A stretch of DNA of 64,000 bases, taken from Amoebidium appalachense. Its lineage: Eukaryota; Protista; Ichthyosporea. The stretch covers positions 1 through 64,000 of the forward strand of contig CAVNZM010000016.1 in NCBI GenBank assembly GCA_963693365.1, read 5' to 3'. Of this stretch, positions 8,047-31,611 are shown piece by piece. The notes under the pieces are model-generated. The model had not been told where the DNA came from. It saw only the letters and a program-made list of their open reading frames with translations, and did not search any database. Positions within the stretch are counted from its first letter, which is position 1. The number at the start of each line of letters is the position of its first letter. A program made the translations under genes and the position numbers.

Positions 8047-9002
8047 TCAGTCATACTTAACGTAAATATTTACAGAATGATTTTCACGAAGTTCTTTTTG
8101 AATCTCTTTCATTCTTTTCATAGGCCCCTCCCCCAACACGGACCACGCAGGCACTTTATATGGAAGGAGGGGCTTCTTGCTCCATTTTCTTTTTACCTTC
8201 GGTGGCTCCGGCTTTTCAGCCTGTTTACGAACCATTTTTCTAAAGTTCCAATCTTGTATGTACTGTGTATGTGTTTCTACAAGCAATCGTGCGTTAGGCC
8301 GCAACCAGTAGCATGGAATCCCAGTGCAAGAGGGGTCTTCATGCGACGCGTGCAACACTATTTGTGTGATGATGGAGCACGTGCAACCTGTGTGTGTACA
8401 GCACTTGCTCTCCCCAGCAAGGCATTTGCAGTCTGTGAAAAGTATCTCCGTTATAACCCCCCCAGTTTGCTGCTCTACATTCTCAGCCGGCGTTGTGGAC
8501 CCCCCTGTTACAGCAAACGCCATATGCACAAGCCTCCACTGCTTGGTATCTCGCACCCCAACGCCGGCACTCTTTGGCACCCGCACCCTCACCATTTGCA
8601 CCACACACGGCGCTGCAGGGTTACACCCTTTCTGCACACTACACACGTGGCCCTTAGTGCTTGCACTAACATTAGACCCAAAGTGCCACCCAAACCCGTG
8701 CAAAACTCTCATGCTCCGCTCCCGCTTGATTCCCTTTAGTACACCTGAGAAATTGTTGCGTGGTTGACCGGTTACATCTCTTGCATGTACAAAGTACTCC
8801 AAAACAACGTCCTCGGGCAGTGTGGGAAGGACATACTCGGATGTCAGTACCTCAAAATCCGTGACCCATCCCCCACGAGGGAACCCGTCGGGTATTGCTG
8901 ATATTGCGATGGTTGGTTTGATGAGTTTATGGATATCAGCCACCTTCGGTGGGTACTCTAAATACTCTCCCCTTGCATATAACTCCGGTGTCCCTGCGTG
9001 TG
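8047..9002 (-). CDS. C-terminal half of Exo1/XPG-SWIM fusion (SWIM-type Zn finger)
   Basis: CKCLAGESKCCTH and SCTGIPCYW motifs; joins in frame to 30573-31611 when the Gypsy and one GCAGC are removed. Confidence 0.8.
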
Positions 9003-9007
9003 GCAGC

Positions 9008-9720
9008 TGTCGTATCCTATTATGTATGTACTAGAGACGCGGCACTCTACTAAGTGTACACACACGAAAAGGAACGAACGTGTACAGAAAAACGGTAAAG
9101 TTTATTCAGACCAGGCTCCGACGGGCAAACTTAGATCCGAACGGAATGAGTCTAAGTTACGACTGAGGCCATCAAGGCCGTGCCCTACAAGATCATCATC
9201 ACCTGGCCCCCTACGATGCCACATTCCGTACATTCCGATCTAACTTTATCGTGCGCCTGCACGAGCTAAGTCGATCGGCTCACACTAATATATTTATCTA
9301 AGTCTCACCCCTCTCCCTTCCCCTAGTGGCACCGCAGAGTCTAATTCTACATTTCATACTATCTCCCTCCCCCCTCCCTCCCCCCTTTCCTCTGTCATCG
9401 AAATATATAAATACGTTTGGCAGCATACACTATCAAAACTTGCCAATATTTACAAAAGGGCCTCTGCCCGAACAATCACATTCCTAAGTCCTCCTACGAT
9501 CTATCCTACACACTAATTAGAATTCTATTGGTCGGCTGTCCCAGCTGACGTGGTCCTGCCCTGCGCCGGCAGAGGCAAGATGATGCACACAGCTGCACAG
9601 CTATCTTGAGGCCCCGGATTTGATCTTGATGATCTGTGGACCCGGGCCACCCCCCCCCCCCCCCCCCCGATCTCGATCGTAGACTTAGGCTAATCTGCTG
9701 AGACGGATTAGTATATGTCA
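9008..9720 (-). repeat. Gypsy 3' LTR
   Basis: Direct repeat of 29859-30572; adjacent C-rich tract 9721-9740 is the PPT on the minus strand. Confidence 0.93.
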
Positions 9721-10170
9721 ACTCCCCCCCCGGCCCCCGGAAAAGCTGAGTCCCACCTCAGTCACATTACATCCATCAGCAAACTTCATCCGGCATCCGA
9801 AACCCATTAAAAACCCATTAAAGATATCATAAACCCATAAACCCATCTTTTTGCCACTCTTTATCCCCCTCTTGTCTTTTAGATAACATAACAGCATCGT
9901 TTTGCTATCACGGGTTTTCTGGATATCATTTTGGTATCTGTTGCTAGATATCAAAATGATCTCATAATGGGCTCATACGGAGCACCCTGAACCCATCGTT
10001 GTTCTATCCTGTGTTCCATGTATTCAACAACCTCGTTATATCCGTATGATACCATTATGATAGTCTATTTGATATCATAAAATCTTTTTAGTCTGATGTT
10101 CAGAAGCGTTTTAGACATAATAAAGATATCTCTAATAGCGGATTAGGAGCCCTTCCCCATATCCTTATGG

Positions 10171-10269
10171 TATACTAAACACGCGTAACTACGACCTGTT
10201 TATTAGATGTATTGATTGGCTTGAGAAACACATCACTACAAAATTATAGCGCACGCGCACACACACACA

Positions 10270-10320
<51 letters not shown>

Positions 10321-10360
10321 CCAGCTGATACCGAGTGTCCCGAGGGGAGCCCCTTTAAAA

Positions 10361-10416
<56 letters not shown>

Positions 10417-10611
10417 GGGGAACCCCAACTAATTGATTTCTCCTTGTAGTCTTTATGGTGTCTCGTAGAGAAAGTAAACCCTGATATATAGTCACCACCC
10501 GACATCTATGTACGTGATCATGATATACCGCTGAGGGGATATTCCGAGCAAACCCCCCCCCCCCATACCTGAGACTGGTTCTCTTTGCCTCGAGTAAACA
10601 GCGTAAACCCC
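10171..10611 (+). mobile_element. 5'-truncated LINE (3' end only)
   Basis: Near-identical to ~14629-15068. Confidence 0.9.
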
Positions 10612-11235
10612 TATCACATATCCTTACGATATATATGATAATCGATCATAAGATACATATATATCTATATGATATCATTTCGAGGTCATTATAGGAGGTT
10701 TCGTATATGGTAATACATCTATAAGATACTATTACAGATGTCCTTTTCATATACAACGGATAGGTATAGGATGCCGAAAACATTATCTAAAGATCATACG
10801 TTAAATGTCATAACGATATAAGCCTCATAACATAAAGATAACTAGGATGGGTCAAAAGAAATTTCGTAATAATATCGTTTTGATAGTTTTAGGAGCCTTT
10901 AAAGATATGAGAAGTTCTGGCTGTATGTCCTCTACACGACATCTTTCTAGTATCTGTTACATATCGTTAAAACATATAGTAGTTTATCAGCTAACCATTC
11001 CTTATGATATTAGTAGCATATCGTTAACATAACTCTGTCACATCTTTTTGACATACAGCACATATATCAAAACGATAAATTTAAGGTATAATTAAGATTT
11101 ATTAAGAATGATTTTCGCAATATAGTTATATTATCCTTTTCATATCATTATGTTATGTCTTGATATATATGATTGAGCCATTTTCAAAGTTGATATCATC
11201 CAGACGTCGTTTCCGATCACTGTTTGATGTCGTTT

Positions 11236-11267
<32 letters not shown>

Positions 11268-11391
11268 CCGGCCCCCCCCCCCGCCCCTCACCCCTTTCGA
11301 ACCTGCCTGTCACGTGGTCATATGTCGTCGAGCCGCTGATTACAGATCCATTTTCTGCAGACACGTCCCACTGGAACGTGTCAACTATAAC

Positions 11392-14300
11392 AAACGCCGA
11401 TGCGAGATGGAAATCGAGCTCTTCTGCGAACTGTTCGCGCTGGCGGAAGGTCGTGCATACGACCCCGTAAGCGACAAGTGGGAACCAACCCCACAGGTGT
11501 CGGACCAAACCGATGCCTAATTTATCCTTCTTCTTCTGGAATGCTCGGACACTGGGCCCCCAAAAGGGCCTCCCCCCCGGGACACTCGACGATAAAATCA
11601 GCTACATACAACAACAGACAAACAACCACACGTTTACAGTGATTTGCGAAACACAGTTTAAAAACCACCACAAATTCAACTCTACATTGGTCGACACATC
11701 CACACACCCCGGTTACGCGAAAAACCGAGGCATTATTGTACTTGCCGCACCACACGTGAGAGTGAAGTGCAAACCGGTAGCAAAAACGGAATTCTCGGTT
11801 TCTATAGAGTTTCTTTCTAATGTTTTTACTTTTGTATATTACCCACCATCTATGTCGGTTGTCGAATTGACTCACGAGTTGTCACAGTTACCAATGTCCA
11901 CTGTTATTTTAGGTGATTTTAACACGCGACTCCACCACACAGACACACTGCAAGTGAGTGTCGGGTACCCATCTAAGCCCCCGGAGCGTGCTATCCCTTT
12001 AGCAAGGTATGTCCAAAGTCACACTTTGCGGTTCCCTCAAATATCCCATGCCCACAACACCGACTGGGGAGTGGCCTTTTGGCCATCAACCATGTCAAAA
12101 CTCTCTCTCCCTCCTAAGCTCTCTAGGTCATCTGACCACTCTCCTATCCTTTTCCTACCTAAGATCTCCCTTGATCTGCTCCCCCCTCCCCCTCCCACCT
12201 TTCGCCTCCGTCTATCCCAGCTTAAGTCACAGTGGGGTAGAGTTGATGTATGTGTATGCTATGCTACGAAACACCCTATATATATGCGCCTATTAGAATC
12301 TGCACAAGCCAGGCCAGATTCACATCTCGTACTAGATACATGCACTAACTTTATTGTTGATGATTTGATAGATCTCGGTGATTATGCTGGCGGTGGTAGG
12401 AAGGAATATCCCGATGCTCTCTTGTTACCAAACACCACTCCCGCTAGACTAGGTGAACCCCTGTCTCAAAAGGAAAGCTTGCGCCGGCTTGCTAGTATGA
12501 ATCGATTTGGCCCCCCTGCTCGTATTATTGGTGATACCACTGGAGACCCCCTCATAGACTCTGATAAGTATTTCTCGGAACTGTTTAAAGATAGGACCCC
12601 CGCTCAGAAACCTATTGTGTGGCCTGTAGACCCATCTATCCCCATAGAATCGATCCTCCCCTTTTTCAGTCCCGATGCCATATGGTCTGTGATATCTAGT
12701 TATAGCTCTAGTAAGTCTTGTGGACCTGATGGACTCCCTGCTGGGTTTCTTAAAATCCTTGTTCCCTCCTACCCACAAAAGGAAAGTGATCGTGCTATTA
12801 AACCTGATCTTACTATCATGTTAAGCTCTCTCTTTTCTTGGTGTGTTAAATGTGGACATGTCCCGTCATCTTGGTTAGATACCTTAGTGATCCCCATAGT
12901 TAAGAAGGACTCTGAGGGCCCCATATCATCCTTTCGCCCCATTACACTAACCCAGGTTGTTCGTAGATTCTTTGAAGCTTGCTTACTTAGGTTATTTGCA
13001 CATCACCCTAGGTTTCAATCTATTCTTCACATACACCCATGCCAATCCGCTTTTCGTAAAAACAATTCATGTTATGTTCAAATAATGGCACTGCACGATT
13101 CTATGCAAGTTGGTGCACAATATGTTGGCTTTATTGATTGGAAAACTGCTTACGATTCTGTCTCCCCTGGTCTCCTATGGGAAAAGCTTGCTGCACGGGG
13201 TGTACCACACTGCATTGGTGTTCTGTTAGAAGCACTCTTGTCTCAAACCTATGGTAGAGCTGTGGTTAATGGGCATCTTTCATATGGTTTTGCTCCTACT
13301 AGAGGTCTCTTGCAGGGTTCATTGCTTAGCCCCTTTTTGTTTAACCTATTTATAGATGATTTGGCTGTCAAGATTTACGCCGAAAACGATGACCCTATTA
13401 ATAACTTTCCGCCTGCACTTCTCTATGCTGATGATCTGTCCCTCCTTGCCCGTACCCCTAGACGCCTGCAAAGATTGTTCGATGTAGTGTCAGAGTGGTG
13501 CAAGGCAAACCTTATGATCCTTAACATAGACAAATGTGGTGTTCTTGTACCTGATATAGCTAACAATTTACACACATTTACATTATCATCTAAACCTGTA
13601 CCTATAGTTCCAGAATACAAATATCTTGGTGTTCCGGTTGATTCTGTTGGTGTTATGTTTCCCCATATGGTCGAAAAGAGGGTAGAGTTGGCTCGTAAGC
13701 GGTTAGCTTTCTTCTCGGCTAATATTTTTAAAGACACACCCCTCCATCCTTCTATTAGACTTACATTTATTCGCACTTTTGTCTTCCCGGCATGTGAATA
13801 TGGTTTACCCCTTCTCGCCGCTTGGATCAAGAAAGAGAGAACTAGAGCGCTTAAACCCTTGGCAAATTTCCTTGAAGCAGAAGTTGCCTCCTTTCTATCT
13901 AACAACTGTTGTAAACCTGGGCCTGTAACGCTCTCGATATATGGTCTGGTCCCAATAGCTGCTAGAGTATCCTATCTCGCGCTGAAATTCAATAAGCACA
14001 TAAGCCGCTTAAAGAAGTATTTGCCCTCCCACCCTCTCTTCTCTATCCGACCTGTCCCCTCCTCACCTCTCCCCTCTTTCCTCCCCTCTCTCTCCCCTTC
14101 TCCCCTGGGCACAAATACAAATAAACCCCGCAATAGTGTGTGTGTGACTTTAGACTGCCACTTACTTATTAAACATGTACACAATCACAAGATAATCACG
14201 CAATATAACAAATGGAAAAAGATACCACACGACACTAGACCCGATGAAAGCATACACCTTGAAAAACTAAGCCTTATGTCTCGTTTTATATATACTGACC

Positions 14301-14727
14301 GCCTCAACCATATTGCCAAATATGGCACTCGCAAGTGTATAACACCTAAATACATATTACCTTCCTGTAGAACTGGTCTTTCTCTAGCTGATGGTATTAT
14401 TGATCAATTACCACGCTTTTACTGTACACGTGCTATACAGTGGAGATCTAATAAGTATAAGGTGGCATCATTTGCATGCCCAAACAACACACACACACAC
14501 CAGTTTAACCGGTCATGTATCGCCAAATGTAGTTTGATAGACCACATAATACCGCAACACACACACGTCACATTCACAACAGACACCCAGAAAGATAGCC
14601 TACCTGTAAATTACAACATCCTTGATTTTATACTAAACACGCGTAACTACGACCTGTTTATTAGATGTATTGATTGGCTTGAGAAACACATCACTACAAA
14701 ATTATAGCGCACGCGCACACACACACA

Positions 14728-14766
<39 letters not shown>

Positions 14767-14798
14767 CCAGCTGATACCGAGTGTCCCGAGGGGAGCCC

Positions 14799-14874
<76 letters not shown>

Positions 14875-15068
14875 GGGGAACCCCAACTAATTGATTTCTC
14901 CTTGTAGTCTTTATGGTGTCTCGTAGAGAAAGTAAACCCTGATATATAGTCACCACCCGACATCTATGTACGTGATCATGATATACCGCTGAGGGGATAT
15001 TCCGAGCAAACCCCCCCCCCCATACCTGAGACTGGTTCTCTTTGCCTCGAGTAAACAGCGTAAACCCC
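11392..15068 (+). mobile_element. 5'-truncated APE-type LINE with intact ORF2
   Basis: TSD TCAACTATAAC 11381-11391 / 15069-15079; ORF1 3' end plus ORF2; ORF1 stop overlaps ORF2 start (ATGCCTAA). Confidence 0.92.
11513..14707 (+). CDS. LINE ORF2: APE endonuclease plus reverse transcriptase (1064 aa)
   Basis: WNAR, ICET, GDFN, SDHSP (APE); GPDG, FRPITL, DWKTAYDSV, QGSLLSP, YADD, YKYLG (RT). Confidence 0.95.
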   Translation: MPNLSFFFWNARTLGPQKGLPPGTLDDKISYIQQQTNNHTFTVICETQFKNHHKFNSTLVDTSTHPGYAKNRGIIVLAAPHVRVKCKPVAKTEFSVSIEFLSNVFTFVYYPPSMSVVELTHELSQLPMSTVILGDFNTRLHHTDTLQVSVGYPSKPPERAIPLARYVQSHTLRFPQISHAHNTDWGVAFWPSTMSKLSLPPKLSRSSDHSPILFLPKISLDLLPPPPPTFRLRLSQLKSQWGRVDVCVCYATKHPIYMRLLESAQARPDSHLVLDTCTNFIVDDLIDLGDYAGGGRKEYPDALLLPNTTPARLGEPLSQKESLRRLASMNRFGPPARIIGDTTGDPLIDSDKYFSELFKDRTPAQKPIVWPVDPSIPIESILPFFSPDAIWSVISSYSSSKSCGPDGLPAGFLKILVPSYPQKESDRAIKPDLTIMLSSLFSWCVKCGHVPSSWLDTLVIPIVKKDSEGPISSFRPITLTQVVRRFFEACLLRLFAHHPRFQSILHIHPCQSAFRKNNSCYVQIMALHDSMQVGAQYVGFIDWKTAYDSVSPGLLWEKLAARGVPHCIGVLLEALLSQTYGRAVVNGHLSYGFAPTRGLLQGSLLSPFLFNLFIDDLAVKIYAENDDPINNFPPALLYADDLSLLARTPRRLQRLFDVVSEWCKANLMILNIDKCGVLVPDIANNLHTFTLSSKPVPIVPEYKYLGVPVDSVGVMFPHMVEKRVELARKRLAFFSANIFKDTPLHPSIRLTFIRTFVFPACEYGLPLLAAWIKKERTRALKPLANFLEAEVASFLSNNCCKPGPVTLSIYGLVPIAARVSYLALKFNKHISRLKKYLPSHPLFSIRPVPSSPLPSFLPSLSPSPLGTNTNKPRNSVCVTLDCHLLIKHVHNHKIITQYNKWKKIPHDTRPDESIHLEKLSLMSRFIYTDRLNHIAKYGTRKCITPKYILPSCRTGLSLADGIIDQLPRFYCTRAIQWRSNKYKVASFACPNNTHTHQFNRSCIAKCSLIDHIIPQHTHVTFTTDTQKDSLPVNYNILDFILNTRNYDLFIRCIDWLEKHITTKL

Positions 15069-15992
15069 TCAACTATAACTCATCTATTATCTTTTACGTA
15101 GGGTTATGTCCCACTGGGGCGTGTCTGTCACTTCAAATATTTTCTAAGACAAATATTTTCTAAGACAAATATTTTTAAAGACATGTCCTCGGGACATGTC
15201 TTCACACAATTTATTCGAACTACGAAAACACACAAAATAAATACACAGACACACACAAAATAATAATAATAATAATAAAAATAATAAAAAGCTCTGTTAC
15301 TTTTTCTCTTCGCACACACACACACAAAAAAAAAGAAAAAAAGAAAAAAAAAAGAAAAGTCACTCTTTTGTGTGTGTGTGGGGGGGGGGGGGGGGGGGGA
15401 AGGAGTATAAAAGAGCAGCAACGAACATAAACAAAACTCAAAACAAGCAAACTATTATGCGGGTTTCTAAGAAGCTCCCAACATCATTAAACTAAACACA
15501 TGCTAATCCCTTGACAGAAGAGTAACAAGGTGTGTGTGTATGGGTATGAGGCCCAAAAAAAAAAAAAAGGACGCCCAACATGACAATATAAGGGGGGCAC
15601 TCTTACACCAAACCATACCATACCAAATGCCGGCAGAGTAATTAACAGGACAAAGAGCCGGTACCCACCTATGGGTGCTAAACATGCACATGATCATTCA
15701 TGTGCTATAAGAGCAACACAGAAACGAAACACGGAAACAACAGCAGCCATAGGACAAAGAACCAGACCCACAGGGTCTTGCCTCCATACTTTATTTACCT
15801 TAACAGGACAAAGAGCCGGTACCCACCTATGAAACGAAAAACGGAAACAACAGCAGCCATAGGACAAAGAGCCGGTACCCACCTCTAGATGATAACGTAG
15901 CCTTATAGCTGCTGATGACTTCATGGGCCAACCTTGCCAAAACCTGTAAAGGAACTCGAGCTAAGAATTAGCTCATCCTACTTGCGAGAAGT

Positions 15993-16024
<32 letters not shown>

Positions 16025-16882
16025 GAGGGGGCTGACTGAGAGTGGCAAAAAAAGAGTCGACAGAACCAACCTTAAACATAGTAAGGACGGAAACCCGGAC
16101 CAGAACTTATGAAGTCTAGAGAAGCAGAAAATAGCTTGAACGATCGGTGGAGGGGATGATAGCTATAGTGCTAACAGCAAAAGTAGTGCCCACAGTCGCT
16201 GGTTCATGAACGTGAAAGGCAACGTGCATCTGCAGCCAGCAGACACACGCACACGCACGCACGCACACACACATACACACACACACACACAGACACAGAC
16301 ACAGACCAGACAGACAAACGCCATATGCACAAAAGCAGGCAACACAAAACTAACCTTCAAGAAGAAGCTGCAGCATGCAGCATGGTCCAAAACAATCAGC
16401 ACGGTGGCTGCGCGATCTGCGGAGGGGATCTGTGACCAGGCGCTGCGGGAAGGGAACTGCGACCAGGCGACCTGCGGGAAGGGACCTGCGACCAGGCGAC
16501 CTGCGGGAAAGGACCTGCGGACCTGCGGGAAGGGGGAAGAGAAATGGAGAAAACAACGTGCGTACAGGCTTAAATGGAGAAAAAAATTGCAAACCGGATT
16601 GGGATTTAGCCAATCACTATTCGCCGCGCCTGATTAGGAAAAAGATAAAAATAGATTTCGGCTCGCGCGCGCGCGTGCATCAGCTTGGTGCCCTTAGCGC
16701 TACCCTTAGTGCCCTTAGTCACAACTATCAGACTATAGTTACGTGTCCTCCACTTCTTTGTTCTTGACCATTTTTTCGGCATGAAAGGGTTTCTGTTACT
16801 TCTTGCTGTCCTTCTTAGCGTGCTTGCTTGTCTTTTTTTCAACATGGGTGTCACTGGCGCTTTCGACTTCTTTGAAATCACA

Positions 16883-16913
<31 letters not shown>

Positions 16914-17444
16914 GCGCACGCGCGCACGCACACACACTCACACATGCACACTGCACACACACACACACACACACACACAGGCGCGCACACACAGGCACGC
17001 ACACACACACAGGCGCACACCTACACAACACACACAGCACATGCACACACAAGCGCACACACGCACACACCCTGTTATCCCTGATCATGATGCCCCCTCC
17101 CCCCTCCCTCTTCCCCCCCGCGCACCCCCCCCCCCCCCCCCCCACCCACCCCACCCACCCACCTACAAAGACGAAAACATTGTACATGTATTGCATACAC
17201 AAATATACTCGCACATATACATACACACATTCACTTTAATCTTTCAGGCTACATGTGCAATATACATTAATTATGCACAGTCGATAGAATTCGTTGTGAA
17301 CCCCCCCCCCCCCCCCCCCTCCCCCCTCCTCGTTCCCCCCATATGCAATGGGGATAATATTGTTTCCCGCTATTAATTAAAAAATCACCGTTCTAACTTC
17401 TTAAGACCGAACCACTTGTAACACCGACAGTTTCGGTTGTGTGG

Positions 17445-17484
<40 letters not shown>

Positions 17485-17594: not shown

Positions 17595-19507
17595 TGTGGG
17601 TAGTTATTGAAAAAACCAATAATGTCTAGGTAACATACCGTATGATGTACATATACTATGCTACAAAGGGGGTTCTATACGAGCTACAACGTTGTGTTTT
17701 TTTCGTGTGACCCTCGTACTCCAGGGGCACATTCACCATCCCCCCCATAAACTTTGTGGTAAAGTTCTCGTGCTAGAAGCTGTTCTGTGGGTAGTTATTG
17801 AAAAAACGAATAATGTCTAGGTAACACATGTACATATGCTATGCTACAAGGGGGGTTCTATTCGAGCTACAATGTTGTGTTTTTTTCGTGTGACCCTCGT
17901 ACTCCAGGGGCACATTCACCATCCACCCCATAAACGTTGTGGTAAATCTCTCGTCCTAGAGGCTGTTCTGTGGGTAGTTATTGAAAAACCAATAATGTCT
18001 AGGTAACATATATATGTACATATACTATGCTACAAGGGGGGTTCTATACGAGCTACAACGTTGTGTTTTTTTCGTGTGACCCTCGTACTCCAGGGGCACA
18101 TTCACCATCCCCCCCATAAACGTTGTGGTAAAGCTCTCGTGCTAGAAGCTGTTCTGTGGGTAGTTATTGAAAAAACCAATAATGTCTAGGTAACATACTA
18201 TGTACATATACTATGCTACAAGGGGGGTTCTATACGAGCTACAACGTTGTGCTTTTTTCGTGTGACCTTCGTACTCCAGGGGCACATTCACCATCCCCCC
18301 CATACACGTTGTGGTAAAGCTCTCGTGCTAGAAGCTGTTCTGTGGGTAGTTATTGAAAAAACGAATAATGTCTAGGTAACACATGTACTTATACTATGCT
18401 ACAAGGGGGGTTCTATTCGAGCTACAATGTTGTGTTTTTTTCGTGTGACCCTCGTACTCCAGGGGCACATTCACCATCCACCCCATAAACTTTGTGGTAA
18501 ATCTCTCGTGCTAGAGGCTGTTCTGTGGGTAGCTATTGAAAAACCAATAATGTCTAGGTAACATATGTACATATACTATGCTACAAGGGGGGTTCTATAC
18601 GAGCTACAACGTTGTGTTTTCTTCGTGTGACCCTCGTACTCCAGGGGCACATTCACCATCCCCCCCATAAACGTTGTGGTAAAGCTCTCGTGCTAGAAGC
18701 TGTTCTGTGGGTAGTTATTGAAAAAACCAATAATGTCTAGGTAACATACTATGTACATATACTATGCTACAAGGGGGGTTCTATACGAGCTACAACGTTG
18801 TGTTTTTTTCGTGTGACCCTTGTACTCCAGGGGCACATTCAACATCCCCCCCATACACGTTGTGGTAAATGTCTCGTGCTAGAAGCTGTTCTGTGGGTAG
18901 TTATTGAAACAACCAATAATGTCTAGGTAACACATGGACATATACTATGCTACAAGGGGGGTCTATTCGAGCTACAACATTGTGTTTTTTTCGTGTGACC
19001 CTCGTACTCCAGGGGCACATTCACCATCTCCCCCATAAACTTTGTGGTAAATGTCTCGTGCTAGAAGCTGTTCTGTGGGTAGTTATTGAAAAAACCAATA
19101 ATGTCTAGGTAACATACTATGTACATATACTATGCTACAAGGGGGGTTCTATACGAGCTACAACGTTGTGTTTTTTTCGTGTGACCCTCGTACTCCAGGG
19201 GCACATTCACCATCCCCCCCATAAACTTTGTGGTAAAGCTCTCGTGCTAGAAGCTGTTCTGTGGGTAGTTATTGAAAAAACGAATAATGTCTAGGTAACA
19301 CATGTACTTATACTATGCTACAAGGGGGGTTCTATTCGAGCTACAAGGTTGTGTTTTTTTCGTGTGACCCTCGTACTCCAGGGGCACATTTACCATCCCC
19401 CCCATAAACGTTGTGGTAAATTTCTCGTGCTAGAGGCTGTTCTGTGGGTAGTTATTGAAAAACCAATAATGTCTAGGTAACATATGTACATATACTATGC
19501 TACAAGG
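17595..19507. repeat. ~185-bp tandem satellite, about 10.3 units
   Basis: Unit start tgtgggtagttattgaaaa recurs at ~17595, 17786, 17969, 18155, 18341, 18524, 18706, 18892, 19074, 19260, 19443. Confidence 0.95.
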
Positions 19508-19618: not shown

Positions 19619-19650
<32 letters not shown>

Positions 19651-19717: not shown

Positions 19718-19771
<54 letters not shown>

Positions 19772-19939: not shown

Positions 19940-22664
19940 AGGGCAACGTGTCTGTCTGTGTGTGTGTATCTCTCTCTGTGTGTGTGTGTTTGTGTGTGTG
20001 TGTGTGGCAGCGTGCGTGTCTCGCTGTGTGTGTGTGTGTGTGTGTGTGTCATGATTGACGACATAGGTTCAGAAGAAGAGTGTGTATCACTACGTTGCAG
20101 TTTTCACATACTTTGTAGTTCACGCGCGCGGAGGCATAATGTTAACGTGCGTTACCGGTTATAGAAAGCACAAGCGTAACTAGCGTTTTATATCATAAAT
20201 AGTCATAAAATGGTAACGTTCATTATAACTACGATGCATGAGAATAGAATGATATCAACAATACATACATTAGATATCGTACGGATATCTTGCGATATAT
20301 CATCTGGTGTCCGGAGAATGTGCACGTGCCTGTGATGTGCACCCGCCCTAATGCAGTAAGGTATTGTTTTCAGGCGCTAATAAACCTTCAAAGGTGGTAA
20401 CATCCTCGGAACACACAAAATATAAAATTGCAATAAATAACCATTTTCCTGCTTCGATGCTCGAAATTGGTACTATGTAGTTACTAGATTGCTCTATTTT
20501 GCCTAGTGTTTAGTGTTTCGGACGTTCGCAATTTACACTCTGCCACATGGCACTTGCCAAATGGGGTAATTTAGTTTTATTTGCGGCCGTTGTGGTTGCG
20601 TGTTTATCTAACAAATATCATTATGAGATGTTTATGACCCCTGTGGGATATGTACAAGATCAGACCATAGAAGATCAGGTCGTTGCGATGTCGTAAAGAT
20701 GGCAGAAACATATCTTCATTAGATGTATGCGATAATCTCAATTAAACATGAAACGTGATTGGCTGATCACAGTTGGGTGACCCTGAGCATGCCGTTTTGA
20801 AGAATAACAACCAATCAAAATCGGGTTTGCCATTTTGTGATTTTCGTCCCACAATCGAACGGAAAAGTGATTTCCTGGCCCTATATAAATGGCCATGCCA
20901 CCATCACATTCAGATGGCCGCAATGAGCCCCGCAATGCCCCGTGTGAGTAATTGGCGGGTTTCCCAACGATTGCTCAGCTGGCTTGATCACAAAAATTTT
21001 CTTTGCGCGTATATCGCAACCATTCTCATCGGACATCTAAAGGATTTTTCGATTGTTCTTCTGATATCTTTCTAATATCCACAATGCTGCCGTTTAGATA
21101 TCACATTGATGTACTTACAAAAGACACTGACCTTCTACTGCACGGATGTTCTTCTGATATCTTTCTAATATCCACAATACTGCCGCTTAGATATCACTGG
21201 GATGGCAAGCTTATGTATCATATACTTATGAATTCGATATATAAATATATCCCTATGCGGATATCGCAATGATAATCTAAGGGCCTCTAAAAGATATGTA
21301 GATGATACCTCGTGGACTACTGCTCTGGACAGATTAGGATATTCAAATGATAGGTTACAGCATATCACATTGATGTACATAGCGACATCTTACCGATATC
21401 AATCACACAACACACTAGTCTTTATTTAGATATATCAGGTACATATCCTTACGACGTGTACAAAGATATGAATTAGATATCGTAGCTTGGGCCTGCAAAG
21501 AGGCAGTTGTGATATGTTTGAGATGTAGGACCAAAAACAGATAACATATTGAATATAAAAGGGATATCAAAAAGAATATCAAAAGGATACCCACAATGCT
21601 GCCGTTTTAGACAGAGCGGGATATTCAAATGATAAGTTACAGCATATCACATTGATGTACATAGGGGCATCTTACACATACCAATCACATATATCACAAG
21701 TCTTTATTTAGATATATTTGGTACATATCCTTACGACATGTACAATGATATGAATTAGATATCATATCTTGGGCCTGTGGACAAAGGGATATCCGAAAGG
21801 ATATCAAAAGGATGTCTTCAACATGCCTACTGGTTGTGTACAAGGGTATCTTCTGGATTACCCCCATGGGCGCATAACGATATCAAAAAAATGGTTGTAG
21901 GTACATCACAACGATGTCCAGACGATATCAAAACAACATCTGTATTATATTCAATTTATAAGCATACATGTTATCCATCAGATATCACGTGGATATCAAT
22001 TTGTATTGTCCCACGACATCAGGTAGATATCGTCATGTAATGCGTATTGGATGGGATTAAGATATTCTATAATGAGGGATATCTGTAGGCTATAACAAAG
22101 ACATCTAACAGATATCGTTTGGGGCACCAATATCCTAAACGTATGTGAAACATATCCAAAAGAGCTATTATGACCTTGCTAACATACATATCACTAGGAT
22201 AGCATATGGATATCATAATGCTATGAGGAAATTTTGAGATTTTCGGTCAAAAACCAAAACCATCTTGGTTTTCTATGATATCGTAAGGATATCGTAAGGA
22301 TATCAGCAAAGGATGGGTTTCGGATATGCGCCATACCATAACCAATCCGAACCCTATCAAAGATATCATTGATAGGGATCTGATGGGTTCTATCCGGGAA
22401 TTCTATGATATCTTGTCAGGCTCTTTTTGACGTATTTAGGGTGGGGTTTGGTATGCCATATATCAAAATGATATATAAGATGGGTTTCGGATGCCGGATG
22501 AAGTTTGCTGATGTCTAACACCCCCTAAAAAGACATAGACTAATCAGTCTCCTAAAAAACTTAAATTAAATAAATTACGAAGAAAAATAATAAATTAATC
22601 TACACCATAAGCTTGATACCTACGGAGACACCTATGATAATAAATTAAATTCCTACGACTACGT

Positions 22665-24720
22665 TCACACTCCCCCTCGGTCTCCTCCCCCCCCTCCCCC
22701 TCCCCCCGTGTGTCTACGTGTATTTGCATCACTCCCCCCCCCGGCCCCCTCCCCCACCGACTTTTTCACACCACGATTAAACTGAGGAATAACTCTCTTC
22801 GGCCTAGAGGGAGCACTAGGCAACTCCCTCTGCACTAATCTAGCCTCATAAGCACGAATAGAAAACGGGCAATCCAAATGAAACTCAGGCAACCACTGAT
22901 CTTCCTGATAACCACCCTCAAAACGAATTAAATAATAATTTACCTTACCTTCCTTACCTTCGATAACCTTTTTATCCATAATTTTATCTACTGCAGCCTC
23001 CGATACATCCACCGACCCGTCATAGTCGGGGGTGAATGCATCTAACACTCTACGGCCCTCCGGCCGTTTTACCCTAAGGGCCCTATCATAATATTCCTTT
23101 ATATCATCTACATTATAAAATCTAACATCACTCTCATTATCTAACCTCTGCACCTTATATGCCGTCGGACCTAACCTAGCCACTATTTTATACGGGCCAA
23201 TGAAAAGAGGCAACCATTTCTTACCATACTTACGAAGACCTTCACCTTCACCCTTACCTTCCTGCTCCTGCTTATATCTCTTTTTCCTAGTATGATCCCT
23301 AATTAAAACTAAAGTACCCTCGGCAAATTCACGTAACAGACGTGTGGACACGTCTGCACGTGTCTGTGCCTGCTGTGTACGGGCCAGAGCTGCATCACGT
23401 GCAGCCCGGGCCCGGGTTAGTAGCTGCTCCCGGAACTCAGTCCAGTGGGGATAAGTTAGTCGGTCAGCCCCCCCCATCGGCAAAAGTGCCGTATCTAACA
23501 AACTCATAGCCTCCTGCCCATAGACCAAATAAAACGGAGAAAAACCAGTCACAGCATGAGGGGTAGAATTATATGAATGAGCAATAAACCTAGACATATG
23601 ATCCCAATCATTAGCCTCCACATCCACCATTTTGCCAAAGGACTTCTGAAACACTGCATGCACACGTTCAGAGATGGCATTTGCTTGAGGGTGATATGCA
23701 GACGTAGTGATATGAGCTACCCTTAAAATTTTGCACACCTCCGACACCAACTGATTTAAAAACACACGACTCCTATCCGTTAACAAAACACGAGGACAAC
23801 CAAACCTAAGACAAATTTCATCCACAAAAATACGAGCAAACAAAACGGCATTAGCAGTGGGGAGAGAAAAAACTTCAACCCAACGAGTGGCCACATCGGT
23901 GACGGTAACAAGAACAGTGTTACCCTCAACCGTAGAATTAAAAGGACCGACCACATCCACTGCTACCCTTTCAAACATACAAACATTAAAATCCCTAATA
24001 AACGACGGGCGGGAACGAGAGTGGGGACTCTCATTCCTTTCCTGACAATGCATGCATGACAACACATAATCCCTCACCTCCCTACTCATACCCGGCCAAA
24101 AATACGAACGATTAACACGAAGCAACGTCCTATTTACACCTAAATGACCAGCCATGGGATGCTCATGCACCATATGCAAAACCTCAGGCACAAGTGCCGT
24201 CGGGACCCAAACTCGGTGTCCGTCTGGCCCAGAACAATGATAAACTAAATCCTGCTCTACCTGACACATTTTTGCTAACTTAGCTACCTTAATCATCTGC
24301 CTTTTATTTTTAAATTTAATCGAATCAACCGGCCCCTTTAAATAATTCTTAACCAGACCAATCAACACATCTTCCTCCTGAGCTAAGATCAAAGCCGTAG
24401 GTGCTAAGGCAGGGGCCGAGCCATGAGACTCGGTCCCGACCTCAGACACTGACAAATACCTCCCCTCCCCTCCCCTACACTTATAAGCAAGCAACCCCGG
24501 AACCCAAGAAGACACATCAACAGACACAGCATCTATTCCTTTCTGCTCACTCCCCCCCCCCCCCCTTCCCCCCTCCCCCCCCCGTCTCTCACTATCCCCC
24601 CCCTCCCCCTCCTTCTCTTCTTCAAACAAAATATAAGCAGCACGAGAGAGAGCATCACAGTCAACCATTGTTTCACCCTTGGCATAAAACAATTTATAGG
24701 AGAACTCACCGAGAGCCGCG
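22665..24720 (-). CDS. Gypsy pol C-terminus: integrase plus chromodomain
   Basis: HEHPMAGHLG...C..C, VDVVGP, TDR, YHPQANAISER, FIGPYKI (GPY/F), YYLIRFEG...QWLPEFHLDC chromodomain. Confidence 0.92.
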
Positions 24721-24721
24721 G

Positions 24722-25202
24722 TGTAAACAACTGTACACATGAACTGTACATGTTTACTAAAGAATGTGATCTACTAGCACACGATTCGTGCTTTGTCATG
24801 AATATCACATAAATATTATGTCCGCACCAATAGGACTCACTCTGACCTAAGAATTGAACCATATATGGTTCTTCCGCTGCATACCACATAAACGAAGTGA
24901 ACCAATAAGAGGTTTGCATAAATAGGACGAAGGTCTGACTGGCTCGGACCGCACCAGAATCACGAATGGCATGTTGCCACCCGCGCTGGCCGCGGATGAA
25001 CCAATCCTGGGCCTTGATCCGAAACCTGGGGGCTATATAACAAAGCCGTCCCAGTACGGGGATCACATCAGTGAAGTCTTGAGACAGACTGAGTCGGCCC
25101 ATAGTAAAAGCAACCTGGCCGCGTGTGCCTTTCTACCCGTTCTCTGTCTTTATTTTGATTCAGTTGTACTCTGCCTTATCCTAACTAGTCCAACTGTTTA
25201 CA
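24722..25202. mobile_element. Solo LTR of another family inserted in Gypsy pol
   Basis: TGTAAACA...TGTTTACA ends; 5-bp TSD CGCGG 24717-24721 / 25203-25207; TATA-like ctatataa at ~25033; removal restores WAAALGEF. Confidence 0.85.
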
Positions 25203-27810
25203 CGCGGCCCACTTCTGCATCCTCTCGTTGACCAGACGAGTGGTGCCGGCCATGGCTAGGCAGGGCTTGTGGTCGGTGTAGACCTCAAACGTCCTGCCTG
25301 CGAGTATATACCTCCATGCCTGTGAGACTGCCCAAAAGATAGCATGGGACTCTCTCTCTGGATTGCTATATCTACGTTCACTTTTACTAAATGAACGACT
25401 AGCATAAGCAATCACCCTATCCTGCCCCTCCTGCACTTGATATAACACGGCCCCCTCAGCAACCTTACTTGCATCACACCGAACTTTAAACATCCCCCCC
25501 CCGGCCGAAAAATCAGGATGAACAAGCATACTCGAAGACTGCAAAGCTAACTTAAGCTTTTCGAAAGCAGAAACAGCATCAACATTCCAATCTATTCTAC
25601 TCTTCTTCTCCCCCCCCGTCTGACTAGTTAACGGCAAAGCAAGCATACTATAATCCTTAATATAACGACGAAGATAATTAGTCAAACCTAAAAATTGCCT
25701 TAGTTGAGTGACAGTCTGAGGACGGGGCCACTCAACTATGGCCCGGATTTTCTCCGGATCAGGGGAAAGACCATTACTAGACACAATATGACCTAAAAAC
25801 TTAACCTCCGGCACACCAATCACAGTCTTGCTACCGCTAATACGGAGACCAGACTCACCCAAAGCTAAAAATACTTTTTCACAATTATTAACTAACTCCT
25901 CAAATGACCTACCTTTAATTAAAACATCATCCAAATAAGGGTGGCATACGTCCAAATGAGGGTGGAGAATTTTATACATTACCCGGCACAACATAGCTGG
26001 AGAGGAGAGCAAACCCATCGGCACCACCTTGTACTGGAACAGCTGGTCACCCAGTGCAAAGGCAGTCTTCTCCTTGCTGCTCTCCTCCAACCTTATCTGC
26101 CAAAAAGCTGCTTTTAAATCAAGTTTAGCAAAGTGAGTATAGCCGTGCAGCTGTGAAAGCTGCTCGTCTATGTTAGGGAGAGGCCATTGGTCTGCCTTAG
26201 TGATCCGATTCAGAGCCCTGTAATCGTTCACTAGACGCCAAGACCCGTCGGGATTCTTAACCAATAGCACCGGACTTCTCCACGGACTCGAACTATGCTC
26301 CACATGACCCTTTTTTAACATATCACTCACTATTATTAGTGCATCGACAATTTATACTGCTCCATTCTATAGCTAGGCATCACTACCGGCCTATTATCAC
26401 CTGTGTCGATCTGCATTTCAAACCCTTTAACGAAGCCTACTTCGTTATCATCGGCCAGAAATGCAAACCGAGTCCTATCAAATAACTTAGCTAGCAATTT
26501 TTTCTGTTCTACCGTCCAATCCCCCTCCTTCATACCAAACGGCAATACTAACTCCGGCTTACCCCCATCACAAGTGGATGCATCCTTATTCACCGGAGTG
26601 CCACTTAACATTTCACCTCCTGTATTACATCGGTGCTGCTCGGGGTGAGGTTGAGGTACCTCCGGATATAGGCGGTCACCCTTAGCACCCCCCCCTCCCC
26701 CCGGCACACCAATGCCCCCGGGCAATTCCTGTTGAGTTAGTGCATGTATGTGGGGGGCCAGGTCTGTGGCCACCCTGCCCCCCACGGTGTTGGTTAACCC
26801 GTCAGATCCACGGGTTAGACCAACACCCTCCCCCCCTGCCTGCACATTCTCACACCCGGGGTGACCCTCCTTCCTCTTGGGGGTCGGGGGAGTGGGACCG
26901 GTGCTGTCCCGGTCCCCCCCCCCATCGTGTCGGGTGACATTTTGGTGGCTAACGTTAAATAAAGTTGTTCCCCCTCCTCCTGAGTCACCCTTCGAGCCGG
27001 CATCCTCCTTTTGGGTAATAAGAGAGACCTCTATACTACCAATCTCATTAGTGAAACTACCGACGGAAACACCTGACCTAATCACTATAGGCTCGATGCC
27101 CGGATTCACTAATTCTATTTCTATGTCTTATCCGGCCATACCCTACTAAGGGTCCATTGGGCCACCTCCTGAAATGGGGTTTTCGGAGTAAAAACCCCTA
27201 AATCCCCTATCCTAACATGATTGCCGGCCCGGACACGTACCGTTTTGCACTGATAAGTCTCGATTACTACTTCAGCTACCGTTCTAGCACCAGACTGATA
27301 ACCGTCGAGCCCATCATGGGTTTTAATTTTAACGCCGGACTGCAATTCTAAAACATTCGTACGTTCAAACAAAGCATTCACATGTCTACGGAAAAATGGG
27401 GCTCCCAACAAAACACTTTGAGCTAAATCCTTAACCACATAACAAGCAATATGCATAGCCTGGCCACCTATCTCACACGGCAACACACAAACACCTTCCA
27501 CAGACATACTACTATTATTAGCACTACCTAAGGCTGTGCTAGAAGCATCTAAAATAGGAATTTCCCCCCCGGCCTGATTAAACCGACGAATAAACGAAGC
27601 ATGCACACAATTAACCTGAGCCCCTCCATCAAGCAAAGCAACAGCCTTCAACTTACCATCAGCTAACCATACGTCTATATAATGCCGGCTAAAACCAACT
27701 AAATCCTCCTCCAATTCAAGCAACACATCATCACTCACACCCAATCCCTGCCCACGAAGACTCACACCCTCGATACCTACGTGCAACATACCTACCTGTG
27801 GTGCCTGCAC
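25203..27810 (-). pseudogene. Gypsy pol protease-RT-RNase H, disrupted
   Basis: LLDGGAQ protease; SPWRSP, DYRALN, YLDD, FLGH, CDAS, TDHKP; frame breaks near 27130 and 26340. Confidence 0.9.
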
Positions 27811-28375
27811 GGGTGGGGTGGGGTGTGTATGTGGTGTGGGTGGTGGTGGAGTGTGTGTGTGTGATGTGTGGGTGGGTGGTGTGTGTGTGTTTGGTGTATG
27901 TGTGGGTGTGTGTGTGGGTGTAGGTGGGTCTGCAACCGTCGTATGTTGTTGTGGTGGTGTGTTTCTACGTGTCTGTGCTTTCCCCCCCCTTCCCCCTTTA
28001 CTCGTGTGTGTCCCCCCCCCCTCCCGGAAACAATGGCACAGAAACCCCCTCCGGTGTGGTTAGAACAAACACCGGGTTGGGACAAGAAACACTGAGACCA
28101 TCCACTTGTGGCCGGGGAACCTCCCCCAACCACAAAACATTCACACCATTCATACCTTTGGTAGAGTCACCCCACAAACATTCATGCCATACCACCTCGA
28201 CGCTGTCTTGAGGACCCACGACGATGCCCGGCTCCCACACGTATCGGGGCGGTGAGGGGGCAAAGGGAAGCTTAACCTGGGGTGGGGGAGGGTGAAGGTT
28301 CTCTGCAACCTGCGGGGGACCGATACTGTCCCCCCCCCCTCCCTCAGTGACCCCAGCTTCCCCCTCCCCCGGAAC

Positions 28376-29710
28376 TCAATAGCTCTTGTAACTACGGCAA
28401 TATGCAGCAGAGTGCCCTTGCCGGCCACAAAAGTAACATGCACCAAAGAAGGGGCCAGGGGGGACTTCAAAACCTTGGCGCAAAGCATAACCGGGAGCCC
28501 GGTCATGTTGGGGGGGCCCACCGTGTGCACCACGGCCCCCCCTTCCCCCCTGCCCCCCTCGGCCTCTCTCACCACCATTTCCACCCCTCCCTCTACCCTG
28601 CCCAGCACCACGAGCAAGATAAGGGGCAAACCTCTCGGTGAACTGCTGCTGTTGTCCTCCACGTCCACCTCGGCCACGACCGCCGTGTCCACCCCGGTCG
28701 CCGCCACGGCCACCCCGGAAGCCGAAGCCCCCTCGGCCCGAGAAGACGGCCTGGGAGAGCTCGGCAACCTGCTTGACCAACATGGTGAGTGCATCTGGCT
28801 GTTCACCCTCTTTTTTCTCTTTTTCCCCCTTCTGTCCACTCTCCTTCTTTTTCTTGTCTACTTCCATCACCTCCTTTTTATCCCTCTTATTGAACTTCAC
28901 CTCGTGCATGGCAAGCAAGTGACGTTTAACATGCAACACCACCTCATCTACCTCATCACGCTCCCCAAACATGCGTGCAGTGTCTGTGTTTACTGAGAGA
29001 GCCTTACGAGCAAACTCGAATTTTTCCCTATCACTCACGTCACCAGCTAACTCACAAAGGTCTTCAAAGACCCGATATTCCCTCTCAAAGAATGCACGAG
29101 CTTCTACGGGGGACATATCTAAAGTGGGAAAGGTATACTTCCATTCTCTGAGCTGGGCCCGGAAGGTACGGCGCCGGTCGGCCGTCAGGTATCGGCCGAC
29201 GAGCCGGGCCGTATACTCGAGCTCGTTTTCCGGCCGTGTGAAGGTCTCGAGCTCCCCGTCCACGTCGTCGGTGCTGTTCTCGTCCTCGTCGTCGGGGATG
29301 AACCGTGCGGCCAGACGTTTCTGGCCGAGTGTCCGGGACACCATCTCGTCCCTCCCCTCGTCGTACTGCTGCTCGTATATACGAGCCGTCACCTGGGGGG
29401 CCTGCTCGGCCCGGTACGGGTGCTCCTCCATCAGGGTGCATAAGTCGGCCATTGTTTTGTGGTCGATGCACTGTTTGATCATTAAGCACGAGGCCGCCAC
29501 AGTGGGGGCCTTCTTTGTGTCTAACACTAGTGTGGGTGTGTTAGCTAGGAGTGTCCTAAGCCACCTAGGTATTTCCGAGTCGTGTTTGAGTGTAAAACTG
29601 AAAGCTGTGGTCTGTCTAACGTCTAGTGTATGAACCTGTGGTACCTGTGTGTGCAGGGAGCTATCCTCCGCTGCCAATACGTAGAACATGTCTACGTTAA
29701 ACTTAGCCAT
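28376..29710 (-). CDS. gag: Gypsy Gag (444 aa)
   Basis: RGG-rich region and CYFCGRQGHSAAYC zinc knuckle, downstream of 5' LTR. Confidence 0.88.
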   Translation of the reverse strand: MAKFNVDMFYVLAAEDSSLHTQVPQVHTLDVRQTTAFSFTLKHDSEIPRWLRTLLANTPTLVLDTKKAPTVAASCLMIKQCIDHKTMADLCTLMEEHPYRAEQAPQVTARIYEQQYDEGRDEMVSRTLGQKRLAARFIPDDEDENSTDDVDGELETFTRPENELEYTARLVGRYLTADRRRTFRAQLREWKYTFPTLDMSPVEARAFFEREYRVFEDLCELAGDVSDREKFEFARKALSVNTDTARMFGERDEVDEVVLHVKRHLLAMHEVKFNKRDKKEVMEVDKKKKESGQKGEKEKKEGEQPDALTMLVKQVAELSQAVFSGRGGFGFRGGRGGDRGGHGGRGRGGRGGQQQQFTERFAPYLARGAGQGRGRGGNGGERGRGGQGGRGGRGAHGGPPQHDRAPGYALRQGFEVPPGPFFGACYFCGRQGHSAAYCRSYKSY

Positions 29711-29738
29711 TGTGGGGTGTTCGGGTGGTTGTGTTTAT

Positions 29739-29769
<31 letters not shown>

Positions 29770-29858
29770 CTGTGTGTATGAGGTGTAGCAACAGCCCAGA
29801 AGGAACTGTCACCGCGTTACCCTAGCGCGAAAAACTGCACTAAAAGAAAGGTGTAGCT

Positions 29859-30572
29859 TGTCGTATCCTATTATGTATGTACTAGAGACGCGGCACTCTA
29901 CTAAGTGTACACACACGAAAAGGAACGAACGTGTACAGAAAAACGGTAAAGTTTATTCAGACCAGGCTCCGACGGGCAAACTTAGATCCGAACGGAATGA
30001 GTCTAAGTTACGACTGAGGCCATCAAGGCCGTGCCCTACAAGATCATCATCACCTGGCCCCCTACGATGCCACATTCCGTACATTCCGATCTAACTTTAT
30101 CGTGCGCCTGCACGAGCTAAGTCGATCGGCTCACACTAATATATTTATCTAAGTCTCACCCCCTCTCCCTTCCCCTAGTGGCACCGCAGAGTCTAATTCT
30201 ACATTTCATACTATCTCCCTCCCCCCTCCCTCCCCCCTTTCCTCTGTCATCGAAATATATAAATACGTTTGGCAGCATACACTATCAAAACTTGCCAATA
30301 TTTACAAAAGGGCCTCTGCCCGAACAATCACATTCCTAAGTCCTCCTACGATCTATCCTACACACTAATTAGAATTCTATTGGTCGGCTGTCCCAGCTGA
30401 CGTGGTCCTGCCCTGCGCCGGCAGAGGCAAGATGATGCACGCAGCTGCACAGCTATCTTGAGGCCCCGGATTTGATCTTGATGATCTGTGGACCCGGGCC
30501 ACCCCCCCCCCCCCCCCCCCGATCTCGATCGTAGACTTAGGCTAATCTGCTGAGACGGATTAGTATATGTCA
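29859..30572 (-). repeat. Gypsy 5' LTR
   Basis: Direct repeat of 9008-9720. Confidence 0.93.
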
Positions 30573-31611
30573 GCAGCCGCTTGTGTGCATTTTCTACCGA
30601 ACCCGCAAAATCAACAAACTCAGGAACGACACCGTGTGGAACCGTGTAACGGGTGACAAACTTTTTGGTGGCCGGGTCATAAACAGCCTGGAAGCGCATG
30701 GCAGCATCGGTGCGGGAGTGCATCCACAAGAAATCCGCCTCTGTTGTTTTATATTTTTCCTTCGAAGCAACCTCCTCCGCAAGTGAATATATCGAGTCTT
30801 CGTTCACTGTATTTATCAGTTTGACGGCTGTAGACCACCCGACGGACGGTATCTTGGCATTGTAATCTGTGCCTACCATTTGACAGGCCCATTGAAACTG
30901 GTTAATGCTCATGTTAGAAAAGTCACAACCGTTTTTGTGCTCACCCCTGTGGTCACGCTGAATGGTGTCGTGGCTGACTACACACCCCATTGCCGCCATC
31001 ACTTTCTGCTTGTTTTCGTCCTCCGTTTCAGCGTACGTGTACTTGTATATGAGTGAGAGGTGTTCCATTTCACTGCCGTAGTAAATGTAGTCACTGTCCA
31101 ACGCAATAATGTGATCTATGTGGCCTATTTGTTGTAGGTGCAGAAGTTGGTGGTCAGCCTCGTACGGTGCGAGTATGTATTCTATCGCATTTGCCCGCAG
31201 TGTGTCCATAACCAGGCGTACCAGGCCGGAAGGGGGGCTGACAGCCTTAGCATACTCTCCGGCGTTGTATGCATTCTTCTTGTTAGTAATTCTTTCAGCC
31301 CTCGTGTGCTCTTTACTGGGTGCCGGTTCTCCATCAAAAGCACACACCGGAATACAGTTGAGCTCTGAAACGTATGAACTAATCTTTTCCAGAATGGAGT
31401 TTGTGATGTTTGCCCATATTTTGGATGGCATGTTAATGTTGTCGTGGTTGTATTTTGCTACGTGTTGGGAAAAGGTGGACTGAGCGATCACGTTGTATAT
31501 AACGGTTGACACGTCAATGCCTATTCTATGACCAGAGAGTGAGTTGGGAAGAAAGCAGGCGCGTTTCTGTTCTGAAACGCCCAAAGCAGGCAGTAAACCT
31601 TCGACACCCAT
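30573..31611 (-). CDS. N-terminal half of Exo1/XPG(FEN1-family) nuclease-SWIM fusion
   Basis: MGVEGL, GIDVS, AFDG, K..T...R, APYEADHQL, DSD, GTDY, helix-turn-helix IPSVGWSTA, FQAVYDP. Confidence 0.9.

Follow-up and report, generated by a model that had tools for sequence, protein, structure and literature searches.

A nuclease gene split by a Gypsy element

The window analysed here, the first 64,000 nucleotides of contig CAVNZM010000016.1 (assembly GCA_963693365.1) from the ichthyosporean Amoebidium appalachense, contains the two halves of a nuclease gene on either side of a Gypsy long terminal repeat (LTR) retrotransposon, the whole being enclosed by the ends of a DNA transposon. The 5' part of the gene measures 1039 nt and the 3' part 956 nt, giving a sum of 1995 nt (664 codons and a stop), and the translation of either half is free of internal stops. 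The pentanucleotide GCAGC borders the 21,565-base insert (9008–30572) on both sides, and the insert starts with TGTCG and ends with TGTCA, corresponding to TG...CA when read on the minus strand. Across 713/714 nt the two LTRs are told apart by a lone substitution and a single gap column, and because they are nearly identical the insertion is taken to be very recent. Frames for Gypsy-type protease, reverse transcriptase (RT), RNase H and integrase were identified between them using Pfam. A first-pass annotation had proposed that removal of 9008–30572 and one GCAGC restores an intronless 664-residue frame, split 21.5 kb apart by a recent Gypsy insertion; its coordinates proved exact and the recent insertion is borne out. 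The gene is a single intronless frame in which an Exo1-type nuclease is followed by a putatively SWIM-like region, and it was broken very recently by Gypsy. The first-pass annotation also took the nuclease to have been functional until that insertion, which is conceivable; the intactness of the frame may reflect nothing more than the youth of the copy.

The gene lies within a transposon

What had been overlooked is the context: this is the second of two genes in a transposon whose ends are defined and which has both a target duplication and a THAP frame (Table 1). A perfect 17-bp terminal inverted repeat (TIR) of the form GG...CC coincides with the two points at which one Copia LTR is broken, and the first 16 bases of the TIR, allowing up to three mismatches, occur only at these two places in the window. 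The empty site with one AT is seen in 3/3 intact Copia LTR copies in the window, and the filled site has two. The halves of the interrupted LTR are ~98% identical to an intact copy, and without Gypsy the element amounts to 4,049 bp. The order of insertion is Copia LTR, then transposon, then Gypsy, and the transposon family is young.

The first frame of the element returned THAP proteins for 30/30 of its matches in the ESM Atlas (best 0.92). No helix-turn-helix (HTH) or DDE domain follows the THAP frame in this copy, and Pfam gave no match for four frames at or beyond the right edge of the adjoining low-complexity tract, including a 279-codon antisense frame (7900–8739). The distance from the THAP ATG to the nuclease stop is 1,448 bp, or ~480 codons. 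The THAP frame is likely to be the stump of a transposase. Just 3' of the low-complexity tract lies a 22-codon stretch ending in a stop (7817–7885); it has no Pfam match and might encode the final residues of the transposase that was lost. Overall, the element is likely an ISL2EU-like transposon that is non-autonomous, was mobile until recently and carries an accessory gene of Exo1-SWIM-like type.

An Exo1-type nuclease core

The N-terminal half of the joined protein matches Pfam XPG_N (E 4.7e-6) and XPG_I (E 1e-9), both over the cut-off. When placed against human EXO1, all seven acidic active-site positions are present (D33, D93, E151, D153, D172, D174 and D249), in agreement with the Exo1/FEN1-type motifs recognized in the first-pass annotation, and the arch lysine K100 is found as well. 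Among solved structures the best match is human EXO1 (E 3e-13 with the single sequence, 4e-29 with a profile), ahead of FEN1 (1e-16) and XPG (9e-14), with GEN1 also well behind; by score the N-terminal half is closer to EXO1 than to any of these three. The best named matches are cellular Exo1 proteins, and a longer-length search with this half returned one match, a fungal Exo1. Identity to the cellular Exo1 matches is just 23–33%. Giant-virus XPG/FEN1 folds match too, more weakly, the top 40 rows having 8–19% identity versus 22–24% for EXO1. No PHROGs match was found for either half, and NCBIfam returned FEN1/Rad2 alone, below the cut-off.

In comparison to cellular Exonuclease 1, a member of the Rad2/XPG/FEN1 superfamily (human EXO1, PDB codes: 3QE9/3QEA), the window protein shares the N-terminal XPG-N/XPG-I core with its acidic catalytic set, the GxDY motif and the helix following it, and a segment resembling F-x-x-Q-x-V-x-D-P. 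It differs in having less than 30% identity, a shorter arch region and none of the long Exo1 tail; instead it has a conserved middle region and the SWIM-like motif, and it is encoded between TIRs. The predicted activity of the protein is that of a DNA nuclease working 5'-to-3'.

The C-terminal region

Two motifs mark the C-terminal half, C192-x-C194-x-A-G-x4-C202-x-H204 and T227-x-x-P230-x-x-W233, and both are invariant in 9/9 aligned rows. We describe the region as SWIM-like. The first-pass annotation had spoken of an Exo1-SWIM fusion and of a resemblance to SWIM: the cysteine-histidine motif stands, and the domain itself is not recovered by Pfam in the C-terminal half and lies below the cut-off in its relatives. 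The accompanying claim that cellular Exo1 lacks SWIM is supported, as the SWIM-like motif is found in 0/58 cellular Exo1/XPG matches, the best profile score among them being E 0.98. The profile was built from short relatives found with the C-terminal half, such that the score of that half itself is partly circular and the 0/58 negative is not. The proposed resemblance to SWIM regions of ISL2EU/Kolobok accessory proteins found no backing, with 0 occurrences in the literature searched. The ends of two relatives may represent the start of a YqaJ domain, for which Pfam gave no confirmation. Folding of the C-terminal half from its single sequence gave a predicted local distance difference test score (pLDDT) of 33.

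Uninterrupted relatives of the joined protein

A search with the C-terminal half against 1.84 billion representatives returned 9 matches, comprising 2 full fusions, 6 short proteins with the cysteine motif only and 1 spurious match to a repeat protein (P0005), which was dropped. The full fusions are P0004 (41% identity, E 4e-34) and P0006 (28%, E 9e-7), both with XPG domains upstream, and both clusters derive from environmental or sequencing-run assemblies. The natural uninterrupted relatives, of 623 and 656 amino acids, have the same layout of XPG and SWIM-like parts. The 623-residue P0015, from the P0004 cluster, aligns through residues 1–332 with 31611–30592 (E 5e-33) and through residues 340–546 with 8985–8296 (E 3e-41). 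Since P0015 matches both halves in order with few residues between, the join of the halves is not due to chance. A model of P0015 has EXO1 as its top match (E 4.6e-18, template modelling score 0.77 by target), which supports an Exo1-type core; the C-terminal half is of low confidence.

A tree was built with one representative per fused cluster and without P0052 (partial) and the XPG/RAD2 rows P0084 and P0085. In it a branch separates the three fused nucleases from 55 other rows of Exo1 type (Shimodaira–Hasegawa-like approximate likelihood ratio test, SH-aLRT, 90). The tree comes from a quick search; its branches are long, it lacks an outgroup and its support values are unstarred. A single origin of the fused nucleases would be compatible with it. 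Searches for the DNA around the relatives recovered none of it: 0/41 pattern matches were confirmed in viral contigs and 0/153 and 0/27 in metagenome contigs; the TIR pattern had 0 matches in viral contigs, and 0/747 candidates scored as longer relatives of the THAP frame. The contigs that carry P0015 and P0019 measure 4,079 and 4,077 nt, near the 4,049 bp of the element, a similarity to which no weight is given.

A probable uninterrupted allele in public reads

Contigs from public sequencing runs, labelled here X1, X2 and X9, give signs of a form of the gene free of Gypsy. A 672-nt contig from X1 aligns to 30573–31219, and its 25 remaining letters equal window positions 8978–9002 exactly, the sole such place in the window. 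Counting the duplication this match has 30 letters, just below the threshold of 31 letters for a bridge. Three contigs from three studies, one of which is possibly the source of the window's DNA, cease matching the window exactly at 30573 without entering the LTR. The contig from X2 runs 1,154 letters past 30573, long enough to hold the whole C-terminal half up to the edge of the low-complexity tract. It is very likely that an uninterrupted form of the gene exists. None of the 24 runs is listed as RNA; one of them, X13, may be RNA and covers parts of the 5' end, which has no bearing on expression in either direction.

Contig depth, which does not equal copy number, is uneven along the element: beside the right TIR (place 31890) it is ~88x (X1), ~52x (X2) and ~30x (X9) that of the gene core, and for the 5' part of the gene ~2–3x (X1), 2–6x (X2) and 13x (X9) that of the core. 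This pattern fits short derivatives that share the right end. Contigs from X9 share 31222–31839 and 31853–31932 and then diverge into sequence absent from the window; they are likely to be deleted derivatives and a short element with a common right end. Two motifs from the loose ends of X9 contigs have no occurrence in the window.

Features of the element and neighbouring repeats

The features of the interrupted Copia LTR, the transposon and the Gypsy insert are listed in Table 1.

Table 1. Positions of the nested elements in the window
Feature	Position	Strand	Remarks
Left part of Copia LTR	6083..6313	+	227/231 identical to reverse complement of intact LTR 5056-5831; AT at 6312-6313 is left target duplication
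Left TIR, 17 bp	6314..6330	+	Begins GG; perfect match to right TIR
Subterminal 11-bp motif	6366..6376	+	Inverted copy at 31852-31862; further copy at 50512, so weak
THAP-domain frame	6599..7132	+	177 codons from ATG; convergent with nuclease gene
Low-complexity tract	7133..7830		GT, CT and G runs seen in the sequence, at expected place of transposase core
3' half of nuclease gene	8047..9002	-	Conserved middle region and SWIM-like CxC...CxH and TxxPxxW (~8430-8305); stop 8047-8049
Gypsy target duplication GCAGC, left copy	9003..9007
Gypsy 3' LTR	9008..9720	-	Purine-rich tract adjoining
Gypsy pol	22665..28059	-	Several frames: protease, RT, RNase H, integrase
Gypsy 5' LTR	29859..30572	-
5' half of nuclease gene	30573..31611	-	Exo1-type XPG-N/XPG-I core from ATG; contains right GCAGC copy 30573-30577
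Right TIR, 17 bp	31916..31932	-	Finishes CC
Right part of Copia LTR	31933..32468	+	526 matches, 10 substitutions, 11 gap columns versus intact LTR; first two bases AT are right target duplication

Despite its almost identical LTRs, the Gypsy copy has its pol scattered over several frames (22665–29734), which could be due to assembly errors at C runs or to a defective copy moved in trans. The presumed gag frame (28376–29734) has no Pfam match. Between pol and the 3' LTR there is a tandem array of ~10 copies of ~185-bp units that are 91–96% alike (17595–19507), and an older relative of the Gypsy LTR (~80%) is located at 4254–5022. Also within Gypsy is a 1078-codon RT frame on the plus strand (11471–14707; Pfam RVT_1), whose N-terminal motifs we take to be those of an apurinic/apyrimidinic (APE) endonuclease. 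It is flanked by two 450-bp direct repeats with a CA run (10161–10612 and 14618–15069). The region 10161–15069 is a very young long interspersed nuclear element (LINE)-like element with terminal direct repeats, and pieces 94–100% identical to it occur at 48169–49276, 55156–57488, 60002–60241 and 62969–63250.

CTTGT borders the interrupted Copia LTR at either end (6078–6082 and 32469–32473), as for a solo LTR with its duplication, and the Copia pol fragments to either side of it are apparently in opposite orientations. A near-complete Copia of the same LTR family is present on the minus strand at 49277–55158, with LTRs that differ at 1/768 bases. Further along, DIRS-type RT and tyrosine-recombinase frames (38158–43404) are bounded by 350-bp direct repeats; a third, inverted copy of this repeat lies at 34582–34937 and a related fragment at 32869–33564. 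An imperfect 220-bp palindrome with short AT-rich repeats is found at 35379–35600.

Comparison with known transposon superfamilies

The closest counterpart of the element is ISL2EU. As set out in the parts of Han et al. 2015 consulted (PMC4482050), ISL2EU transposons duplicate AT on insertion, have ends in GG, and encode a THAP/HTH/DDE transposase together with a YqaJ exonuclease in a second open reading frame (ORF); their TIRs span 6–259 bp and begin with GG, and the preferred target is A|AT|T. The rows seen of Table S2 of that paper give AT in 18/18 ISL2EU entries, THAP in 10 rows with transposases of 426–552 amino acids, and YqaJ in 12 rows with second ORFs of 200–646 amino acids. All published ISL2EU families covered by the consulted parts of PMC4122938 and PMC4482050 are from animals. 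The window element resembles ISL2EU in its AT duplication, short GG...CC TIRs, THAP domain at the start of the first ORF, exonuclease in the second ORF and length of ~4 kb, and the single ISL2EU TIR printed in the supplement agrees with the window TIR at 8 of the first 11 bases. It differs in its second ORF, an Exo1/XPG core with a SWIM-like motif and no YqaJ match in place of YqaJ, in its target flanks (T|AT|A) and in the missing DDE part of this copy. We consider that the element works like ISL2EU and stop short of counting it among the canonical members.

The literature searched, with Repbase and subscription journals (which may hold such entries) outside its reach, yielded no account of an element of this kind that encodes a nuclease of XPG/Exo1 type. 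The term XPG is absent from the supplements of PMC4482050 and from the main texts of PMC12730594 and PMC5718144.

Membership of two neighbouring groups was considered and rejected. Kolobok elements, in the sections seen of Kojima and Bao 2022 (PMC9587614), carry TTAA duplications and 5'-RR...YY-3' termini and exchange accessory nucleases freely among lineages. In KolobokE, D and P a DDE element is combined with an accessory nuclease that can be exchanged, and this principle recalls the window element, as do the RR...YY ends, of which GG...CC is a form that does not discriminate; membership is ruled out by the target duplication, AT in place of TTAA, and the Kolobok lineages described there include no XPG-family nuclease. 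Spy, a sister clade, targets AAATTT without duplication and has a single ORF for the transposase alone, usually without THAP, according to the part of PMC4122938 consulted; the site CTATAT and the two ORFs speak against membership.

Discussion

The best explanation overall, and in our view a probable one, places the nuclease gene second in a cut-and-paste transposon of 4,049 bp and of likely ISL2EU type; its product would trim the ends left by excision. That the protein is a transposon accessory nuclease is the firmer part of this reading, and we consider it very probable.

A host Exo1 gene or a viral XPG-like gene with incidental flanking repeats would account for the cellular Exo1 proteins among the best named matches and for the similarity to giant-virus XPG/FEN1 folds. 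The first-pass annotation had itself named a host Exo1 ortholog in its host locus as the outcome that would overturn it; the gene was found instead within perfect TIRs at both breakpoints of an interrupted Copia LTR. The viral matches are the weaker ones at the identities given above, neither half has a PHROG match and no relative was recovered in viral contigs, so that this origin is extremely improbable. An element of another THAP-bearing superfamily (Kolobok, P) or of Spy seems improbable too, if less drastically so. The THAP domain, which we take to be non-specific to ISL2EU, and a site that can be read without duplication would suit it, and the RR...YY ends and free nuclease swapping of Kolobok (in the part consulted of PMC9587614) point the same way. 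They are set against the absence here of the Kolobok TTAA duplication and the AAATTT target of Spy, which usually lacks both THAP and a second ORF (PMC4122938, in part). The element has an AT duplication, and P elements make 8-bp duplications.

It is similarly unlikely that the nuclease is mere cargo, with a non-autonomous element having picked up between its TIRs an Exo1-like gene, of host or foreign origin, that has no role in transposition. This copy does lack a DDE domain and contains host-like low-complexity DNA; on the other hand the gene is whole, intronless and distant from its cellular Exo1 matches (23–33% identity), its C-terminal module is in 0/58 of the cellular matches, and it occupies the slot of the ISL2EU nuclease ORF in an element of the usual size. 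A more serious competitor, possible though still rather unlikely, has the nuclease work inside the transpososome, cutting 5' flaps or the second strand to remove the non-transferred strand or flanking host bases, such that transposition depends on it. In its favour, two-gene Harbinger elements require both genes for transposition (PMC9179366, in the part consulted), and the EXO1 structures include 5'-flap complexes, judging from their titles. Against it, YqaJ is a processive exonuclease and not a flap cutter, which leaves resection as the activity common to both nucleases. Spy, the sister clade, also manages with a transposase alone (PMC4122938, in part).

Several observations weigh against the reading of the gene as an ISL2EU-type accessory nuclease. 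For the C-terminal half, Pfam gave no match at E<=1, and Pfam SWIM (PF04434) appears in the relatives only under the cut-off (E 0.0055–0.15). The Atlas lead for this half is a cluster with SWIM in 11% of its members and a recognition value of 1997, below the 2300 mark, and the structural model of the half is of low confidence (pLDDT <50 over 318–499 and 522–585). The SWIM relatives may derive from second ORFs of ISL2EU elements, and Pfam gives no YqaJ match. In the core, the helical arch region is shorter than that of EXO1, and R107 as the arch arginine is a guess based on counting. The single target site has T|AT|A against the A|AT|T preference of ISL2EU, and a reading with T...A ends and without any duplication fits it too. 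The THAP match is just under the Pfam cut-off (E 9.8e-5; 23.5 bits versus 23.9), DDE is absent in this copy and no autonomous relative was found in the contig searches. One X9 contig departs from the window after 31930, without the terminal CC. To these are added the limits of the tree and of contig depth noted above.

If the nuclease does serve an ISL2EU-type element, the THAP frame would be the stump of a THAP-HTH-DDE transposase, and this non-autonomous copy would have been moved in trans. The Exo1 core would take the role of the unrelated YqaJ in animal ISL2EU, and the SWIM-like module would be the common part that tethers either nuclease to the transposase or to DNA. By resecting the empty donor site, the nuclease could channel the break into homologous gap repair with the sister chromatid as template, which would restore the element and give a net gain of copies; aborted repair would leave deleted and filler-bearing derivatives such as those seen here. 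Derivatives with internal deletions and filler are known to arise when gap repair is aborted; the literature search found no paper joining these terms. This resection mechanism is put forward tentatively, as conceivable and somewhat short of probable. YqaJ has the lambda-exonuclease fold and degrades 5'-to-3'; it and Exo1 have unrelated folds with the same polarity of degradation, and because of this shared polarity the second-gene slot apparently selects 5'-to-3' degradation. More speculative, and in our estimate doubtful, is an ISL2EU-like lineage with a plug-in resection module, in which a SWIM-like adaptor would take either YqaJ or Exo1, deliver it to the excision site and force homologous repair.

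The locus itself is a clean natural record, with exact ends, an empty site of the transposon in paralogous LTRs and signs in the reads of the empty site of Gypsy. It also carries a warning, as genes of this kind are prone to annotation as host Exonuclease 1. The function of the ISL2EU second ORF is given as not known in the part of Han et al. 2015 consulted (PMC4482050). The occupation of one slot by two unrelated folds whose predicted polarity is the same would narrow it to 5'-strand removal, and this is testable by altering one active-site residue, the enzyme family being well understood. Were the plug-in resection module to prove true, the element would itself encode a switch in the host's choice of repair pathway, and the second ORF of ISL2EU would have found its function.

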